A stretch of DNA of 60,139 bases, counting the filler, from Hausera hauseri (Eukaryota): assembly GCA_046269625.1 (NCBI GenBank). It is 11 parts of 11 records of this genome, joined end to end, with 100 filler letters (N's around TTAATTAATTAA, not from the genome) between each part and the next. Parts side by side here need not be neighbours in the genome. Positions count along the whole stretch, not along the records: positions 37,045 to 41,459 come from JBJURY010593111.1; 10 more parts are not named here. One strand, given 5' to 3'. This document shows positions 12,728 to 59,473 of the stretch, one piece after another (positions within the stretch are counted from its first letter, which is position 1; each line of letters opens with the position of its first letter). The position numbers and the translations under genes were made by a program. Under the pieces are notes generated by a model. The model worked only from the letters and a program-made list of their open reading frames with translations. It was not told where the DNA came from and did not search any database.

Positions 12728-15612
12728 TTACAATAATGCAACATGCCCGTGAGGTAGTGTGCTGATTCCATCGTCCATAATTTGCCGCTTGTCATCAAAC
12801 CAGTCCAGGCTCTTCTTTTGCGCGTTTACTGTTAGGATCACATGAGCCTTAGACTGGATCCTTCGCATCTCTGATATGAGATGAATCTTCTCATGCAGAG
12901 CTGTCATATAGTCATCGAAGCTTATTTTCTTAGCTAAGGTCGCACTTTGAACCCCTTTTGCCCGCTTCTCTATTTGACCACATACGTCAGTCGCATACAT
13001 TTTGGATCTAAGAGCCATAAATCTCGAAATGATTGTCCCATTCACTTCGTCTTTGAATTTCACAAGGACCTTCTTATTGACTATTGAATAAGTGGGATGC
13101 TCCTTTGGATAGTCAGACGTATTCATATGCTGTGCCAATTGAGCAAAGTCAGCATAAATATCATCTGTATGGATCTAATAGATGAAACTATCAGTATCCA
13201 TATACATCACCTGCACAACTTGAATGTGGGGACCATGATTTCATACTGGAATTTGTACATCAGGGTCTTTGATAAGTTCAAAACGGATATACCCACATAT
13301 ATGGGCTTGTTGAATATCAAGGATGTTTTCATCATATGGATGCCAACCAAGTTCTCTGTATATATCGTACTGCTATGGGAGTTGGGCTTGGCAATGAGCT
13401 TCTTTGCTCGCTTCCACTCAGAGATCAACTCGATGTTAATCCTGTTAAGGATATTCTCCATCGTCTTACCAAAAACGTTGTTGTTGTACAGTTTAAATTG
13501 ATCTTCCTCAAAGTCGTTTTTAGCCTCGGCCCTCAACTTTGTGTTAAAGTCGATGTATAGCTGAAACCACATGGATTGGCTAAACTGCACAGCCCGATGG
13601 ATCTTAGTAATGCGAAGTACATTCCTGACTACTTGCTGGAGATTTATGTAATGGTCTACATATCTTTCCCGATTTTAAGATGGTACAGTAACTTTTCTAA
13701 TTCCCCATTCGGCGGTCTTTTGCCTTCAGGAAGGAAAGGCAGCTGCTCATGCCTTGTGTGGATGGAAGCTGGATATTCAACACACACATCCAGTATGTAA
13801 CCCGTATCTCCACCGGGATCCAGGTACAGTATAGAAATGTCTTCCGGATGATGAACCCACTTGAAGTAATCATATGGCAATGGAGTGCTCATTGCCCATC
13901 CATACAAGTTGTTTGCATCCAAGTATGTGATATACGAGGATGGCTTGGATGAGTCATAATCTGTCATGTACTTGTTGTTGGCCTCACTATACCAGTGAAT
14001 TACCTGGCATATTCCTCCTCTAATTCTTCTCTCGATCATGAGGATCATGTCATAATCCTTTATTATCTGCAGCCCAATACTGATATATCGCAGCATTACT
14101 GCCCAGCTCATCCCTGGAGCTGTAATAAAATGAGCCGGATCCAATGCATGGCTCTTCACTGTAACATTTCTGAAGCTCTCAAAGACATCCGTCAGCGGCA
14201 GCACATCCGTCTTGAGGTATATATCGCTGTATTCTCCCAATGTTCGGCATTGGAATACATCCCAGATATTTTGAGCATTCTGGTAATCAGCACCACTGGT
14301 ACTGCAATCAGAGAGGATATTGTAAAAGCTCTCCTTAGCCGGCAGTGAGGTCTCATCCAGTGTTTCCCATGAGGTTATGTAGTCATAGGGAAACAAACCT
14401 TTCCTTTTGACTAAGTCGAATGTGTTTAGAAAGTGTTTCTTAGTTTCCTTCAGTTCGTCTTCCGGAAGGTTCTTGACAAGGCTATTAAGAGACAAACTCA
14501 TGAACCGGAAACTATCTATAAATCGGAAACTTGTTTTACCTACATGCTTGGTAAAATGATGTACTGTTCCTCACAATTAGGGATCACTTTAATATTGCCA
14601 TCAATGTTCCCAAAATCTCTCACTATGAAGTGGCTGTCATAGCCACTAAAATTATGGAATATTATGGGTACATATGTCACCATTTTGCAACGCAGATTGC
14701 AATTGTTGCATGCTGCGCCTCGATATTCGCCTGTAAAATGGCATTGATCACGTACCTTGTAATTACCCTTTGCGAATGATTTTTCACACAAGTAACAGAT
14801 TGTTATCTTTCTCCATTTACATTCTTCTTCCTGTGATATAAGCATATCATTTTTATGCTGCTGAAGCATATCTCTAAGCCTATGAGCCATGTTTTCAAGT
14901 CTCTTCATGAAATGAGCTGCTGCATATAGAACCCTATATAAACATGGCTCCTTGTCCATTCCTTTTGCATACATGCAATATCACGATAGTTCATGATCTC
15001 GGTAGGCTGTCGTATTACTTTGTTGCGGATTCGGATTGCACATCTGTACTGGCCTAAAAATAGCCTCAAAGTCACAATATACGACAATGGGCACTTTATG
15101 CTGTTTTTTAACCTCTGAATTCTATATAGTCCTCCTTAAGAAATTCAGTTCTTATACAATAATTGCTGTTACAAAAAATTTTATGCTCCTTTAACTTCTC
15201 GATAGCAGATTCACCACCAAAATGTGACAGACATCTTTTGCAGATATCAATTCTGTGCCAATTTTTTGTTATTTGGAATCTGATGAAACGACCAAAGTTC
15301 TTAATCCAGATGTAATGCCTCTTTTTACCATCATCTAACATCAGCAGATCCCTATGGTCCTCCAATTCCTCTTTGCATATATGGAAAGGATAGAATTTAT
15401 CCGTTTCATCCGCTCCGAAGATATTGATGGATATCCTATTAACTCGTTCAAATCTTTCGATGTCATCTATTTCTGGTTGGAATTCAATACAATTGAAATC
15501 GTAATAATGCTTTAACCTCTGATATACTGAAACTCGAGAAGCATGTTTTTGATCCTTTACATATTTTGAGAGAATCGCGTACTTGAAGCACATGCTATCT
15601 TTATTTTTCACA
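12728..15612 (-). pseudogene. Maverick/Polinton protein-primed family B DNA polymerase (DNA_pol_B_2 type), frameshifted and 5'-truncated
   Basis: Motifs in collinear ORFs: CFKYAIL; CYLC...VRDQCHFTGEYRGAACNNCN (endonuclease VII-like Zn module); IFHNFSGYDSHF; RKGLFPYDY; YLDANNLYGWAM; KLYNNNVFGKTMEN; KFKDE; SLDWFDDKR...TLPHGH. Confidence 0.93.
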
Positions 15613-37044: not shown

Positions 37045-37550
37045 GGACTGTAGTCATGTGACTGTATTCCGCCATCTTCAACCAATGGGGAAAGTGCAGA
37101 GGTTCGGCGGTTTTCTCGTTTTAGAATGATAATTTCATCATGAATGACATGAATCGTTCCGGACGACCAGTAAATCTCGACGAGGACCGTTTAAACCAAC
37201 TGATCCAGGAAGACCCTCATCAAACGGCTGTAGAATTGGCTGAGCTGATGGACTGTAGTCATGTGACTGTATTCCGCCATCTTCAACCAATGGGGAAAGT
37301 GCAGAGGTTCGGTGTTTTCATTCCACATATTTTGACTGCAAACAACAAAAATCAACGTTCTACAATTTCTGCTGGTTTCCTTGAGCGTCACCGAACTACC
37401 CATGACCACAAAGAAAGGTTTCTTTACTGCATCATTACAGGTGATGAAAATGATGTCTTTATATAGAACCCGAAGCAGCGGAAAGAATGAGTAAACCGTC
37501 ATCAACAAGCAAAACTCAGAGCAAAACAAGAATTATGATCGATAAATCGA
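37045..37550 (+). mobile_element. Mariner transposase remnant
   Basis: DMNRSGRPV...ELAELMDCSHVTVFRHL..MGKV....IPHILT...FLYCIITGDEN (HTH, WVPHEL-like motif, first catalytic D); 37045-37110 duplicates ~37249-37315. Confidence 0.85.
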
Positions 37551-37599
37551 AAATGAAACATGGTCTTGTAGTATCTAAAGACTAGTAATTCCAAAAATA

Positions 37600-38122
37600 A
37601 GAGGAAAGATTTCATTGGGAAGATACATATGGATCTACACCATCTAGGTATGAAGAAGACAAAACTATATAATCAACATCACTTTGCAGTTTCCGGTTTA
37701 TCAAAAGAAGTAGAAGATGTCATTGGAAAGTGTGAAGAATAATCAAGTCAATCTTGACCGACCTCGGTAAGTTTTTCAAAGAATACGACATTAATCAAAT
37801 ATTTAGCAGTCCGTTTCAACATCAATTTGACGAGTTGGCAAAAAGATTAATCCGAACTGTTCGGGATATGTCGGTAACCAGTGCTGCAGGAACGTTGGGT
37901 AGAGCATGGTAGAAGTCACTACCGGAAATTGAATTTTCGATAAATGCCACAGTACAAAGCACAACGGGACACTCACCGTTTGAAATAGTTTTTAAACGAG
38001 AAATCAACTTGCACGCAGCTGGAGGAGTCACAAGGCAGACAGATAATGGAAAACTGGCACAATATATTACAAGACATATTACAGAAGCAGCTAACAGAAT
38101 AAAAAATTTCGGGGGGGGGGAG
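37600..38122 (+). mobile_element. Ty3/Gypsy integrase remnant ending in a polypurine tract
   Basis: HLGMKKT...VIGKCEE; FSSPFQHQFDELAKRLIRTVRDM; LPEIEFSINATVQSTTGHSPFEIVF; G10-AG tract at 38111-38122 followed by TG. Confidence 0.8.
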
Positions 38123-38379
38123 TGTAACGCCCACATTCACCCAATTAATGATCTGCATGATTGTTGAATATTACAGAACATTTTGTTTTTTTGACCTCTT
38201 CAAATTGAACCTGATCTGTGAATCTAAAAACTTCAGTTGGATAGTTTTCTTTGGATTTTTACTACGGAGTCATTTTCATCCGAGCAATTGAGTTCTGATT
38301 TCGATTTTGAGTTTATTGTTAATACTACAAAATTTGTGATCTAAATCCGATTTTTAATTTGTCGTTATTGCTTCAAAAA

Positions 38380-38870
38380 CCTTGTTTTGGAATTTAAAAG
38401 TCGCATTCGGCGATTAATTGTTACGGCAATGGAAGAAACGAAGAAAACATTGGAGGTTGACGATAGCAAAACAATTGCAGAATTGATTTCACCCGTCTGT
38501 AACAAAATGAGCATAAGCAATCATGAAGAATATTCATTGATTTACGAATTGGACGAAAAAAAATGAAAACCCTAACGTTGAAAAAAGGCGAAAACCAAAT
38601 CAGAGATTTTGAAAAAGATGAATTGTTACTTCGACAAAAATACTTTTTCTCCGATCAAAATGTCGACGCGAAAGATCCGATTCAGTCAAATCTACTCTAT
38701 GCTCAGTTAAAAACGCAATTATCGATGAAATGCATCCCGTCAACATTGACGAAGCAGTCCAACTGGCCGGTATCCAATGTCAATTGGAACTCGGCAAATA
38801 TTCCCCAGACAAACAGAAAACAGTTCATTCGAACATCAAATATTATCTACCAAAAGAATACGTTAAAGTA
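38380..38870 (+). pseudogene. TLN: Talin head (FERM F1-F2) fragment, frameshifted and internally deleted
   Basis: KTLEVDDSKTIAELISPVCNKMSISNHEEYSL, LLLRQKYFFSDQNVDAKDPIQSNLLYAQ, HPVNIDEAVQLAGIQCQLELG and YLPKEYVK match talin F1/F2 (VDDSKTV..ITNHDEYSL; RKFFYSDQNVDSRDPVQLNLLY; FLPKEYVK). Confidence 0.9.
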
Positions 38871-39346
38871 GAGTCCCATACTGGTGTTAGAAGTCCCCAC
38901 ATGTATGCAGTCCCTATACAGCTAGGAGATGCTCAATATTGCATTACAATCACAGATCAATTAGTATCAACCGTTTTCCATCAACCAGTTAATCCAGGAG
39001 AGACTGGTTGTCTCAGTCGAAGAACAACTGTTGGAGTTTTACATTCCATATCTACATCTCGTCGAAATCCAGGAGTTATTTTATTTCTCCATCGACGACG
39101 CAGGCGATACATCAGATACCTTCGGCGCTGCTCCTGTCGATTTGAATGATTCCAAGAAATGCTAATCATCACAACTTACACAAATAGGTCTCTTTCACAA
39201 ATCTCAGCACAAAAGATCTGCCTTCTCACAAATCTCACAAACGTTCTCGTGAATCCGATTGTGATGATAGCGATTCGTCGTTCGATCGGCCAGCGAATAA
39301 AATGTTAAAAACCGACGATTGTTCAAACGATTCTCATCGCACTTTC

Positions 39347-39620
39347 TCAGCAGAGTATATTCGTCAAGATATCGAAGGACACAATGCATACAATCACAAA
39401 AAATCGGCATATGATTTGATCAAAACACTTTTTAAGCTCATCCAAGGAGAAATTATCGAACATTTTGTGGCCCATATCCAGAGCTCATTAAATCGTTCTT
39501 CACGAAATATCCGAGTCAGTTGGAAGGAAAAGGACTGTGCACTGTTTTTAGCTATGTTTATCGTATCGCGTAGCGGTGACGAAAGATGCGGCGTTGCCAG
39601 TGCCGGCTTCACCAACATTG
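39347..39620 (+). pseudogene. CSE1L: Exportin-2 (CSE1/CAS) internal fragment
   Basis: EYIRQDIEGHNAYNHKKSAYDLIKTL...WKEKDCALFL matches CSE1 EYIRRDLEGSDxxTRRRAACDLV...WKxKDxAIYL. Confidence 0.75.
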
Positions 39621-40209
39621 CTTTGTCCAATGGTGGTGGGGTAGAGCAGTCAATGCCGAACATAATGCTTCTCGGTTGCAGTCCGCCGGTGTGTTGGTCA
39701 CCAGATGACGCACATTGGGTCTTGCCTGGCAAAACTGACTTTGCAAGGGGAGGGGGTAATGTGGTGCCCACATTCACCCAATTGTGGATCTGCATGTTGA
39801 GTTTGTGAAGGAGACAAAAACTAATTGTTTAAATAAAAAACATTTTTAGGCGGAGTTCGACTTTTTAAAGTTATTGAAGTTTTTCATAAATTTTCTTTTT
39901 ACAATAATTCTTTTATATTCATATTGTTTCATATGAAATTCCATGGCTTTCCAATTCACGGATTTTGATGTAGTGGATATAGATTTAGATAATGACGAAA
40001 ATGATTGTTCAAACAATGCCTCACTCAATTCAATTGAAGATGAAATTAGTCAGTTATCATTTACCGACTGAGATCTTCATGAATTTAACAAAATGGAACG
40101 AGATATTTATGGCGAAGAGAATTCAGTCGATGAGATATCTAAACCTAATGATGATATTACGGATGAACAAACGGAATCTTTGGAGTTTACAAGACTTAAT
40201 CACATACTA

Positions 40210-40365
40210 ACAACCAATAAATCAAAAATCAGCGCAATGCATGCAATCTGGTCTAAGGCACAAGTGATAGCAAGAGTGCAACTCAGAAAAATCAGTTTGG
40301 ATCAGTTTGACAATAAACGCGTTATTCTAAATGATGGCATCCGTACTCGAGGTCATGTTTTATAA
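40210..40365 (+). pseudogene. C-terminal tip of a Maverick pPolB
   Basis: MHAIWSKAQVI...KISLDQFDNKRVILNDGIRTRGH aligns by eye with MRRIQSKAHVI...KKSLDWFDDKRQIMDDGISTLPHGH of ORF 12728-13138. Confidence 0.8.
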
Positions 40366-55464: not shown

Positions 55465-58400
55465 TCACATTTGAAATAGCTGATGTAGCGGAAATAGACT
55501 AGAACCGACAATCCGTCCATCGTCAACGGAGGGAGCAATATCATTGGCTACAACCACCTCTGTAGGTTCCATTACATGGGTGGTTGTGGCAATGTCTGAT
55601 TGGCATCTGATAACATCCGTCTGTTCTTCATTCTGCCGTAAATAATGTTGAATTACTAACGGAACTAGTCTTATCAAAGAAACGATAGGATTTTTGATAT
55701 TTGTCAAATTATCAACTGGAACAGATGGATTAGGAAGTGGATTATCAATGGGGTCTTTATTAGTTTCTTCATCAGAATCAGATGACATGACGGGGACTAG
55801 TCCTAGAGAAAAGGCAACATGTCAATGCAACAATTATTATGTATAAAATGTATTATTATTGGATAATTGAGCAAAAACGATGATGAACGATAAACGATGA
55901 TCGACAGTGCAGCCATCGAGTCCCCAATCATGTAGATAAGTAACAAAGGAGACAGAAATAGTCCGAAGACGGCATAATCCATCTTAAATTGTCAATCATC
56001 GCGTCATATAAGAAAGCAAGGCAAAAGAAGGCAAGAAAAGCAGAAATGTGAACGGGACAAGTAACGCAAGGAAAATTAAACAAAATCAAAGTCATCGGAT
56101 CTTACTTCGTCGTCTGGATAAAGGAACTGATGATGAGGAGGAAGAGGAGCTGAAAGAAGAACTGTCGATAAATGCAGTGGATTTTTTGAATTTCTTCACG
56201 ACTGGAACATAGGCAACCCCATCATCGCCATCGTTATCACCGTCGTCACCATTTCCATCATCATTTGAATCTGAAGATTCACTTTTCTCCTTGTACATTT
56301 TCCTCTCCTGATTCAAAATCCGCGTACTACGTCGAGTTCCTGGCGTACGAGGCTTCGGCAATGCCTTTGGTTTCTTTTGACTCTTAACTTCATTGTGCTT
56401 CAGTAATGCTGGCCTGTCGACAGAATTGCCATAGAATTTATCCGACAAACCGGCAGATAGTTGCATCGGATGAAACACGTCTACTTTGATTGGTTTTGGT
56501 AGCAGGATGGTTCTACGGGCGCCATCGTAAACATCTGATGACAATGAAATAGTCGGTGCCAACGAACTATTCCCCGGTATAACGGAATTCGTCGGCGTTT
56601 GCATAAAATTCTGAAATCGATCAGTTGGACCAACGAGGCGATTATTTGAGATTGTTATTGGAGCATTGGAACACAACAAACTCGTCAATTTCTGATGGTT
56701 TCTGTTTGGCTGTATTGGCTGCCGTGTTGCCGCCCCATTCTGATTGATTACACCAGCGGCTGTCCGGTGATTCAGTAACCACATAGGCAGGAAATTCTGG
56801 ACATTAGTTCCGCCCATCTCGGAATTGGCCGGCACAACACGATGATAATTACCGAAATTGCCGTTGACCATCGATGATTTCGGATGAATTGGAATTTTCA
56901 ATGGATTATCGGCGGCCAATGTCTGCAATTTGGGAAAAATGAGTCTATTCTGTTGCTGCATTTGTTGGTTGTTATTGGGTAAAAATGGATTGTTGCAAAT
57001 CGACGGCATAAACAGTTTCTCACTGGTGAATTGCTGACTGGGTGCCGCAGGCAGCACGTTGACGTTGTGTGCGGCACTGCCACTGTCGCTGCCGTTGTTT
57101 CTTTCATCATCATCACCGTCGTCGTTGTCTGATGTTAGATCGATGGTTACTGTCGATGTGATTGGCCGTTGTGGTGGACGTACGACAGTTCGATGTTCGC
57201 TGTTGGCACTGGCTGATGACACAGTTTCTGGGCTAAATAAATAATGATCAATGGTAGATACAAGATTGCGTTTTTCCATTTATAATTACTGATGGAGGAA
57301 TAGTTTACAAGTACCACAATATTTAAAACATGAAAATTAAGGTCAAAGTAATCGTGTGCATACCATTAAACTTCCATACACACAAAATGCGGCATCAATT
57401 TCTTTACGCAGCGATGCACACATTCAATAATTCAGAACAATAACAAGAAAATTACTGACTAATAGTATTTGCCAGGAGGCCAGTCAATTACTCTCACTAA
57501 TACAGTCGCATTTGTTGCTATTTTTATCGTACGATGACAGACTAAAAAATCAATTATGTCATAAAATAATTAAATGGAACTGTTTATACACCAACAAAAC
57601 TGTCGATAGCAACGTAACAAATACAAAATTAATTTTACCTTTCTCCATTTGTGTGCTGTTCCCCAATTTCTGCTTGGCGATGAACTGTCGTGTCAGGAAA
57701 TTCTTCGTCACTCTCCAACAATATAATATTCTGATTTATCGGACCATTTTGTACATCCGCGCTCGAATCCGGACCGACATTCGTCATTTCTGATTCATCT
57801 TCATTCGCTTCTGCCTTGTTCTTCTTCGATTCTTTTGACTCCTTCACTGCAACAGAGACATACGATCCATCCGAATTAATGTTCACCTCCGTCACGTTGT
57901 CGCATGCAGCAAATTTCTTCAATATCTCGTCGAAATACTCATCAACGAACAATTCTTTCAATGTAGCCGGTCCATCACAAACAGGGCATTTCCACACAGA
58001 CCGCCTTTCATTCATCATGAGATACAACTCAGCATCGAAACACTGAAGATGTTGGCAATTGAGGCCGCGTAATGGACACGTAATTCGACTTTTCCCGACG
58101 GGACAAAGCAGCGAAACGGGCAACACAGACGACATGACGATATCGTCGTCCTGTGCAAATTGACCATTTGATCGAAATTTTTCATTGACCAGTGCAATTG
58201 TAAAACTGATCGGCCGCTGAATCGGATGCTGACGACTCTTGAATCGATCCAACAGCTCGATAACGTTAATTTTCCTCTCGAGATAAATTCCAGCGTAGTA
58301 ATACTGAAATACGCCCGGTGTTTGCCACCAATTGATGTGGACGAGCTGTCGATATCCGTGCTCGTCTGCTAATACGAATTTCATATAATCGCTGATATTA

Positions 58401-59338
58401 ACTGGTCGTGAATGTCGTTTGCCTTCCTTAGCAACGGTGTTGCTAGGCAGAACTTCCCAAAGCGGCACCGGCGAATTGTTCACGCACAACGACAAATAAG
58501 GCGGAATCATTTCCTCCATTTCCAGTACGTCGTCCAACGATGTTGGAAACTCTTTTGTCGGATCGTAAATACCAAACCGGACGTTGACTTGCCATTTATA
58601 GATTTTCTTGTTATTTTGCTGAATCCGATGGCCAAAAATCATATTTCTCGCACTCCTTGACAACGTGAATTGTAACTGGATTTTCGATGTGACTCGGTTT
58701 TGCTGGCCCATATTCGGCAAGGGTTTTGGAACGAGTAAAAAGAGCGGATGGAGAACAACCTGACAGCAATAAAATTCTGATGATTTGACAACTGCATTTT
58801 TCACACAATATGGCAAATGCAACGATGGTACGATGAATCGATTGTTCATGTTTGGCGCTGATGCTGGAACGGAACAAAATCCATTCGGGAATTTCGTATA
58901 ATTAGGAATGAATATCCGCAGTGGATCGACACCACTAATTATTTCCGATCGAATGTTGATCGGGCAACTGTCTACGAGATCGTTCGTGATACAGTACAAC
59001 CAGGAAATAAATGAATTCTGATTTGTTGGAACTTTCATTCCGTTAGTGAAATTTTGAAAAATTGACACAATTTGATGATCTTGTCGATCTGGCAGTACAC
59101 TCGATTCTAATTCTAAACATTCATTTCTCTGAGAAGATCGATTAATAATGTGCAAAATGTGGTGCAGCAAGTTAATATCATTTGCCATATGGATAGAATC
59201 TAATAAACCCTTCTGAATCTTGGTTCTACGTCCATTAGTCGGTAAATCAAAAATTTCACACAAAGTCGAAAGACCTCGTTGCGAAATGTTATTTAATATA
59301 AATCTCTTGATCGTTTGTTTTATATCCTCAATAATCAT
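55465..59338 (-). CDS. PIAS: PIAS/Siz-family E3 SUMO ligase, three exons: 59338-57639, 57232-56106, 55802-55465
   Basis: SAP-like LSTLCEIFDLPTNGRRTKI; PINIT-like HSRPVNIS; SP-RING VSLLCPVGKSRITCPLRGLNCQHLQCFDAELYL...WKCPVC; SIM-like IILLESDEE and VTIDLTSD. Intron 57638-57233 (AG|GTAAAA...TTTAG|C, phase 2) and intron 56105-55803 (A|GTAAGA...CTCTAG|GA, phase 1) both preserve frame. The start codon choice (59338) is inferred. Confidence 0.9.
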
Positions 59339-59473
59339 ATTTTTTGTATAATTCAAGTAATTATAAAACAAGTTTTGAAAAGACGAAAAAGAAAATGTTA
59401 CCTGGTATACTCTGACATTCAATGTGATATTCGAGATGTTGTGTGAAGAATTCGGTCAATTTCTCGGTAGCAT

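Follow-up and report, generated by a model that had tools for sequence, protein, structure and literature searches.

In metazoans, LTR-mediated retroposition produces retrocopies that replace part of the internal open reading frames (ORFs) between two long terminal repeats (LTRs) (Tan et al. 2016, PMC5131818). Here, we analysed a window of 60,139 nucleotides from Hausera hauseri (assembly GCA_046269625.1), which consists of eleven short contigs with N spacers between them. The finding sits on one 4415-bp contig (37045–41459, G000:C593111). The window contains, at 38123–40204, one member of a non-autonomous, high-copy LTR family with the order LTR1, primer-binding site (PBS), interior, polypurine tract (PPT), LTR2. 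With a probability of about 0.7, we read the family as one that carries sense pieces of host genes in its LTRs, mostly in frame; the pieces were likely captured by template switching to co-packaged mRNA and are likely kept by selection for an open frame.

With the elements of PMC5131818, the family shares partial host mRNA pieces, several genes stacked together, non-autonomous amplification and a template-switch model, and its CSE1L capture fits that description directly. CSE1L alone has the internal position described there; talin, Rab6, TTC7, Nup35, LRR, GGA and actin-related (ARP) pieces lie inside LTRs. Unlike in those elements, most cargo here is within the LTR, differs between LTR types, of which there are dozens, and stays in frame across the PBS; the terms 'within the LTR' and 'solo' do not appear in the text of PMC5131818. 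TRIMs (terminal-repeat retrotransposons in miniature) with gene fragments (Gao et al. 2016, PMC4717578) are likewise non-autonomous, with 5-bp target-site duplications (TSDs), exon-only fragments and tandem LTR–interior arrays. Their fragments are internal, however, and the elements measure 1.2–1.4 kb and are described as non-coding, whereas here the cargo is in LTRs of 0.2–1.05 kb and an ORF is present. The Cassandra TRIM also has cellular sequence in its LTR and forms tandem arrays, but that sequence is a single, fixed domain resembling 5S rRNA, with a pol III promoter, and not the changing protein-coding pieces seen here (PMC7215508). BARE-2 and Veju are template-switch chimeras, and in BARE-2, as here, foreign sequence entered the LTR by a template switch; that insert came from another retrotransposon and not from host genes. 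Maize Bs1 has a multi-gene chimeric ORF, as here, but is a single low-copy element with internal cargo (both reviewed in PMC13317346). In a literature search of limited coverage, we found no report of variable protein-coding cargo inside LTRs or of a frame rule. Gene capture between LTRs is already known; what is new here is the predominantly in-frame phase of the cargo with the LTR end, the PBS and the interior ORF.

The assembly searched comprises 869 Mb in 909,086 contigs, and the family-level counts rest on fetched loci that were chosen by similarity and not by random sampling. An 18-mer common to the two LTR starts, proposed as a genome probe by an earlier sequence-only reading of this DNA, gave 117 exact matches, whereas its reversed control gave 0. 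Where the motif was inspected, at the first 30 loci, it lies six bases past the LTR start, after unique DNA or after the family's 3′ interior and PPT. The fetched loci hold 131 distinct LTR starts; those with enough downstream sequence form 45 clusters, including a few spurious singletons. The LTRs have a common head and a ...CACA end around talin, Rab6, TTC7, Nup35, LRR, GGA or ARP pieces, all in sense orientation. Past the head, 95 sense ORFs were scanned, with Pfam matches at or above the cut-off to Nup35 RRM, TTC7_N, LRR, Ras (Rab6-like), RRM_1, HMG_box and GGA_N-GAT, and matches below it to Actin and a second talin FERM_M. Behind the RRM, HMG and second-talin pieces, an LTR end was not located. 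None of the 77 antisense ORFs, which are shorter than the sense set, matched at the Pfam cut-off. Cargo piles up on common tails (Rab6 on an acidic tail that is also the end of LTR2, TTC7 on the Nup35 tail), and it is amplified, with 114 TTC7 matches, 110 non-parent Cse1 matches and 8 GGA matches. The LTRs measure 0.2–1.05 kb (maximum 1043 bp), elements reach ~1.3–3.3 kb, and copies are 80–95% identical.

A 5-bp TSD with at least four of five bases matching flanks 12 of 32 solo-class LTRs, 7 of them perfectly and in 6 LTR types; the value for shuffles is 0.31. Whole cargo-bearing LTRs are real insertions. The whole element L065 is flanked by the TSD CTTAT, and like LTR pairs were observed in six elements (L021, L065, L077, L081, L122 and L130). 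Two tandems were seen in the TSD survey, and others at L080 and L309. The core of the sequence-only reading, a non-autonomous LTR family with host cargo, therefore stands: copies of the motif have a PPT upstream, TG...CA termini, varied host pieces in the LTR, a PBS downstream and 5-bp TSDs. The alternative it had allowed for, an ordinary LTR with constant downstream sequence in a one-off nest, fails. TG...CA repeats, PBS, PPT, TSD and an interior without gag-pol enzymes place the family among the non-autonomous LTR retrotransposons. Direct repeats, PBS and PPT instead of terminal inverted repeats separate it from Pack-type DNA transposons, and LTRs of up to 1043 bp with ORFs of up to 454 aa separate it from TRIMs, which are very small and lack coding capacity. 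We also noted further interior starts past the PBS at L040, L043, L232, L256 and L317, behind talin, TTC7 and GGA LTRs; these are candidates for other partners. Compared by eye, the LTR tail peptide in L156, L138 and L172 looks similar to a portion of the N-domain of the interior (ITxTDPSG motif), and a common origin of the two is possible.

The constant interior gave 542 first-look candidates, the best of them 89% identical to the window copy, and falls into subtypes of 1301, 880 and 740 bp. The sequence-only reading had the family keeping only its cis signals, with CSE1L as variable cargo inside the LTR-equivalent interval. Instead, a constant interior of 0.73–1.3 kb with an ORF is also present, its only Pfam matches are to Cse1, and all three subtypes stem from one fixed 912-nt capture of CSE1L (coding sequence, CDS, 1092–2003). 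The CSE1L parent, L119, is intronless with a 952-aa ORF and is 88–90% identical to the 1301-bp subtype. The 740-bp subtype arose by deletion between two 11-nt ATTGAAGGATC repeats, where microsimilarity is clear. Copies open from the PBS through CSE1L occur in all three subtypes, and 1301- and 880-bp copies are open to the PPT. Homology searches found no credible homolog of the N-domain: Atlas gave none, and we rejected one weak unrelated match and four weak matches to proteins with repeats, which in three of them were identified as ankyrin, fn3 and Ig. A second interior type (B) was observed at L162:1–957 (minus strand) and in relatives (~1.0 kb, 233 candidates, with an orphan ORF and tandems). 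It has neither CSE1L nor pol and shares LTRs, 3′ end and PPT with the first type. A homolog search with type B returned sub-threshold TPR-like leads only. Its length of ~1.0 kb, its identical PPT end and its lack of pol led us to reject it as the autonomous helper.

In translation, the LTR end and the PBS give His-Thr-Gly-Val-Arg-Ser, and the frame runs on into the interior ORF; the PBS position is conserved in 63 distinct LTR–interior junctions. The frame of each cargo was defined by homology, and its phase was taken relative to the frame that joins the LTR end, the PBS and the interior ORF. Phase 0 is the most frequent one in 7 of 7 testable types, for which chance gives (1/3)^7 = 5e-4 if the types are independent. 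The phase-0 counts are 6/10 for talin, 3/3 for GGA, 3/3 for LRR, 4/5 for Nup35, 2/2 for Rab6, 11/19 for TTC7 and 2/2 for ARP; one GGA row (L318) with a wrong end was excluded, and 7 TTC7 copies have no end in view. We then compared variants over ten segments. Stop-creating variants make up 93 of 1789 singletons (5.2%) and 21 of 896 variants shared by at least two copies (2.3%; p=3.6e-4), where 'shared' may include recurrent mutation or alleles. This is a strict single-site test with frame controls, and it supersedes a looser stop count (p=3e-9). The depletion is not seen in the other five frames (p≥0.086), and interiors alone give p=0.0035. The ratio of nonsynonymous to synonymous variants (N/S) is 2.70 for singletons and 2.24 for shared variants, with similar shifts off-frame, so that amino-acid change is near neutral. 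Because shared stops are roughly halved while amino-acid change is near neutral, these sequence comparisons suggest selection for an unbroken ORF and not for a protein.

The frame rule could instead reflect selection on a protein. Capture would proceed in the same way, the interior ORF (Gag-like or silencing-suppressing) would be needed in cis, and the cargo would give it a start codon. The N-domain is indeed alignable across copies, with a mean column identity of 79%, and an ATG stands a few codons ahead of the PBS even in short LTR types that have no recognisable cargo. The interior nevertheless tolerates large in-frame deletions, and N/S does not differ between singleton and shared variants in the CSE1L piece (p=0.58) or the N-domain (p=0.26). 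In type B, N/S is reduced for the shared variants (p=0.013), and none of these is a stop; the ORF of type B is, however, unrelated to that of the first type (hhalign probability 0.5%), and neither has a credible homolog. We regard this explanation as improbable and retain open-frame selection.

Host introns are frequent and short, and none was found in a recognised cargo. The Rab6 cargo lacks four clear GT-AG introns (46, 39, 47 and 731 nt) of the Rab6 gene L272, a gene that is ~75–85% identical to the cargo per exon and may be a paralog. The talin cargo runs through positions where the paralog loci L118 and L225 hold ~45-nt introns. From this absence of introns relative to homologs, capture via RNA appears likely. 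It is only likely because L272 is distant and the immediate parents of the talin, TTC7 and GGA cargo were not found. Entry at the DNA level would be the alternative, by repair of LTR breaks or gene conversion with genomic DNA or L1-type retrocopies, and the frame agreement would then be chance combined with shared tail ancestry. It is compatible with an intronless CSE1L parent, with the missing immediate parents, with the several cargos on common tails (Rab6/acidic, TTC7/Nup35) and with an unrelated talin-paralog chimera that retains an intron in one copy (L225). The uniform sense orientation, the lack of introns and the agreement of all seven modal phases, each junction being a separate event, speak against DNA entry, which we consider still less probable than selection on a protein. 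The talin-paralog chimera itself (L225, L229, L235 and L118) was seen in several copies with the same unrelated downstream sequence; L225 retains a ~45-nt intron, and L229 and L235 are without it.

Several observations weigh against the reading of in-frame RNA capture that we prefer. Out-of-phase copies make up 8 of 19 for TTC7 and 4 of 10 for talin, and several frameshifts are common to 2–6 copies. Of 29 tail types, 21 have an open ATG in frame upstream of the PBS, compared with 1 and 6 in the other frames, in a test that is biased by TAA in many terminal motifs. The longest-run test, which leaves out the final 8 codons and is unbiased, gives a weaker signal: p=0.009 with 8 of 11 tail types, and p=0.027 with 10 of 17 when the threshold is lowered. 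For LTR cargo alone, the stop depletion is borderline (p=0.055), and the N/S of type B indicates some amino-acid constraint. As for the source of the cargo, an immediate intron-bearing parent was found for no LTR cargo: the talin, TTC7 and GGA searches gave element copies or distant paralogs only, and parents were absent among 29 fetched TTC7 match loci and among 8 GGA matches. The CSE1L parent is intronless and therefore does not discriminate between RNA and DNA capture, and the CSE1L junctions have no clear testable microhomology, the pre-capture state of the element being unavailable for comparison. Among the elements, 20 of 32 solo-class LTRs have no TSD, some through mis-parsed ends, and in 20 rows at least five elements, including the window copy, have unlike LTRs against six with like LTRs. 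An autonomous partner with the same termini or PBS was not found among the fetched loci.

In the mechanism we propose, transcription would start near the LTR head, so that the cargo-bearing portion is transcribed and the start codon of the ORF lies inside the LTR. In yeast Ty1, the ORF start is within the LTR. An autonomous helper would supply Gag, reverse transcriptase and integrase and would likely package the element RNA together with host mRNAs. Reverse transcriptase primed at the PBS may copy a few terminal bases from the tRNA primer, jump to another RNA, either a sister RNA or a host mRNA, and return. The switched product would be duplicated into both LTRs, and integration would need only the head and the last few bases to be kept. 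Since the ORF would start in the LTR, an out-of-frame join would give an early stop. RNAs with early stops may be copied less, by nonsense-mediated decay or translation-coupled packaging, and in-frame joins would then win while the protein drifts. Whether the LTR is a repeatedly overwritten host-mRNA cassette, with replication filtering in-frame joins and mass-producing chimeric ORFs without selection on protein function, seems to us about an even call. Cargo inside an LTR is duplicated at each insertion and persists as solo LTRs, which would scatter units of promoter plus coding fragment genome-wide. If the frame rule holds, the family is a natural case of selection on translatability and not on protein sequence, and it makes testable how shuffled fragments get in frame before they have a function, as in gene birth. 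If the whole reading is true, the family would be a device for exon shuffling, at work in an animal, whose frame filter is built in; its chimeric ORFs would join one host domain to another and these to the element ORF and CSE1L. In such genomes, these pieces would inflate the gene annotation.

The copy in the window has the following features.

38123–38880, plus strand: LTR1, 758 bp, a mosaic of a Rab6-type head of ~66 nt, a talin-type body and a TTC7-type tip ending CCCATA.

38374–38872, plus strand: talin F1-F2 fragment in LTR1, from Pfam matches; sense, with copies at 92%.

38882–38894, plus strand: PBS, one base past the LTR1 end, reading Gly-Val-Arg-Ser in the element ORF.

38882–39759, plus strand: constant interior of the 880-bp subtype, 878 bp, with the orphan N-domain, an insert of ~50 codons, the CSE1L piece and a 3′ cis region.

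39352–39622, plus strand: CSE1L fragment (parent CDS 1092–1362), what is left of the single 912-nt capture, with 76% identity here.

39745–39756, plus strand: PPT; the same G-rich tract precedes the 3′ LTR in family copies.

39760–40204, plus strand: LTR2, 445 bp, of the 'acidic' type; copies are 87–93% identical and have the same end base.

The PBS-like motif, the PPT and the second TG start at 39760 were all found where the sequence-only reading had placed them. Its protein assignments were confirmed by Pfam for talin (FERM_N, E 6.4e-6; FERM_M, E 1.4e-6) and CSE1L (Cse1, E 9e-13). The PBS presumably matches tRNA-Leu. A PBS-like word in the talin gene was considered as a capture primer and rejected, as this word also comes after unrelated LTR tails and at the start of other interiors. 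The head of LTR1 is identical to L013 at 60 of 62 nt, its body matches the solo talin LTR L033 (TSD ATAAT), and its tip is common to L039 and L059. Microsimilarity is evident at the head/body switch. The talin piece is frameshifted in A-runs; over its final 86 codons it is open, in the frame of the PBS and the interior ORF. The interior of this copy is frameshifted as well. A stretch of 31 codons in the F1 region, found in L039 and L040, is absent from the window copy; longer talin copies keep F0 plus this stretch. The tail of LTR2 (39983–40204) doubles as the tail of Rab6-carrying LTRs, and a solo LTR of the LTR2 type, L094, has the TSD TAAGG.

The window copy is a decayed chimera: LTR1 has three parts, LTR2 is unlike it, and on the left the copy adjoins a foreign integrase. 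As claimed earlier, its two LTR starts are alike over ~31–37 bp only; the TSD expected around such a copy is missing (GGGAG versus TACTA). Its two LTRs may come from different insertions, through a short-read assembly join or ectopic recombination in the shared interior, or it may be the right-hand portion of a tandem in which the left unit had switched into Gypsy integrase RNA at the G-run. We rate this account of the window copy as less likely than not. The missing TSD, the unlike LTRs and the flanks, which come from different elements, agree with it, as do the tandems in the family, and non-autonomous families of a plant (sugar beet) are often chimeric and TSD-less (PMC13570524). Run X1, which may be from the source sample, breaks the stretch into 592 records, none of them spanning. 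An independent contig from this run bridges the talin end, PBS and interior with 0 differences; the PPT–LTR2 join is spanned with only 22 bases on one side and by nothing longer. The interior, on the other hand, reaches no more than 89% identity with any other scored copy, and a sliding comparison has no clear break. The family-level result rests on TSD-flanked solo LTRs and is left untouched by this explanation.

Three features flank the copy.

37587–38110, plus strand: decayed Gypsy integrase of a separate high-copy family, cut ~70 codons short of its own end; a left neighbour and not a gene of the family.

38111–38122, plus strand: G-run where the integrase meets LTR1; it is homologous to a purine run of the integrase CDS.

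40205–40362, plus strand: C-terminal tip of a protein-primed polB; right flank and not cargo.

The integrase, reported by the sequence-only reading, was recovered with an Integrase_H2C2 zinc-binding match (Pfam, E 4.6e-6), and its family has 976 first-look candidates in the genome. The G-run had been called a first PPT. We rejected it as the Gypsy's PPT: in a table of 29 of the 30 other top integrase copies, 27 of 29 run on with integrase coding sequence past the homologous purine run, one stops 6 nt on and one diverges. Three A-to-G differences give the run its likeness to the family's G-rich PPT, and it is possible that it served as a microhomology switch point. Other integrase copies continue with a GPY-type C-terminus, their own PPT ~200 nt further and then a non-TG LTR start. 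In the Gypsy family of the left flank (L188, L202, L191 and L208), the short LTRs apparently start TAAT or TGAT and not TGT. A role of this family as the helper is unsupported, since its termini differ.

The polB tip had been reported as cargo. Its presence was corroborated by a match to the polB remnant at 12877–12740 of the window (56% identity, 46 aa, E 6e-9), and the ORF upstream of that remnant has a weak DNA_pol_B_2 match below the cut-off. Its status as cargo was rejected, because it lies beyond the LTR2 end at 40204: most of the best genome matches to LTR2 stop at query base 445, which is that position. No further copies of the tip were found among the fetched loci. The remnant used for this identification is part of a decayed protein-primed polB (Maverick-type) at 11135–15612. 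At the start of the contig with the LTR copy (37046–37532), we observed a Mariner-type transposase remnant with an internal 69-bp duplication.

The host CSE1L protein is ~39% identical to CSE1L of many animal phyla, and the source organism is therefore a divergent animal. The assembly also contains talin exons of vertebrate type, accompanied by CA repeats, at L115:1–578 and L228:594–731, and their sequence suggests foreign, possibly host, DNA. The 6.7-kb contig at 4320–11034 has a GC content of 53%, compared with 34–41% in all other contigs of the window, and because of this deviation it probably comes from another organism in the sample. Its minus strand holds one open frame of at least 2237 aa with three repeats of ~700–800 aa and no Pfam match. 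At 57638–59455 (minus strand), we observed an uninterrupted host-type ORF of 606 aa with a MIZ/SP-RING zinc finger; CSE1L is uninterrupted in the same way.

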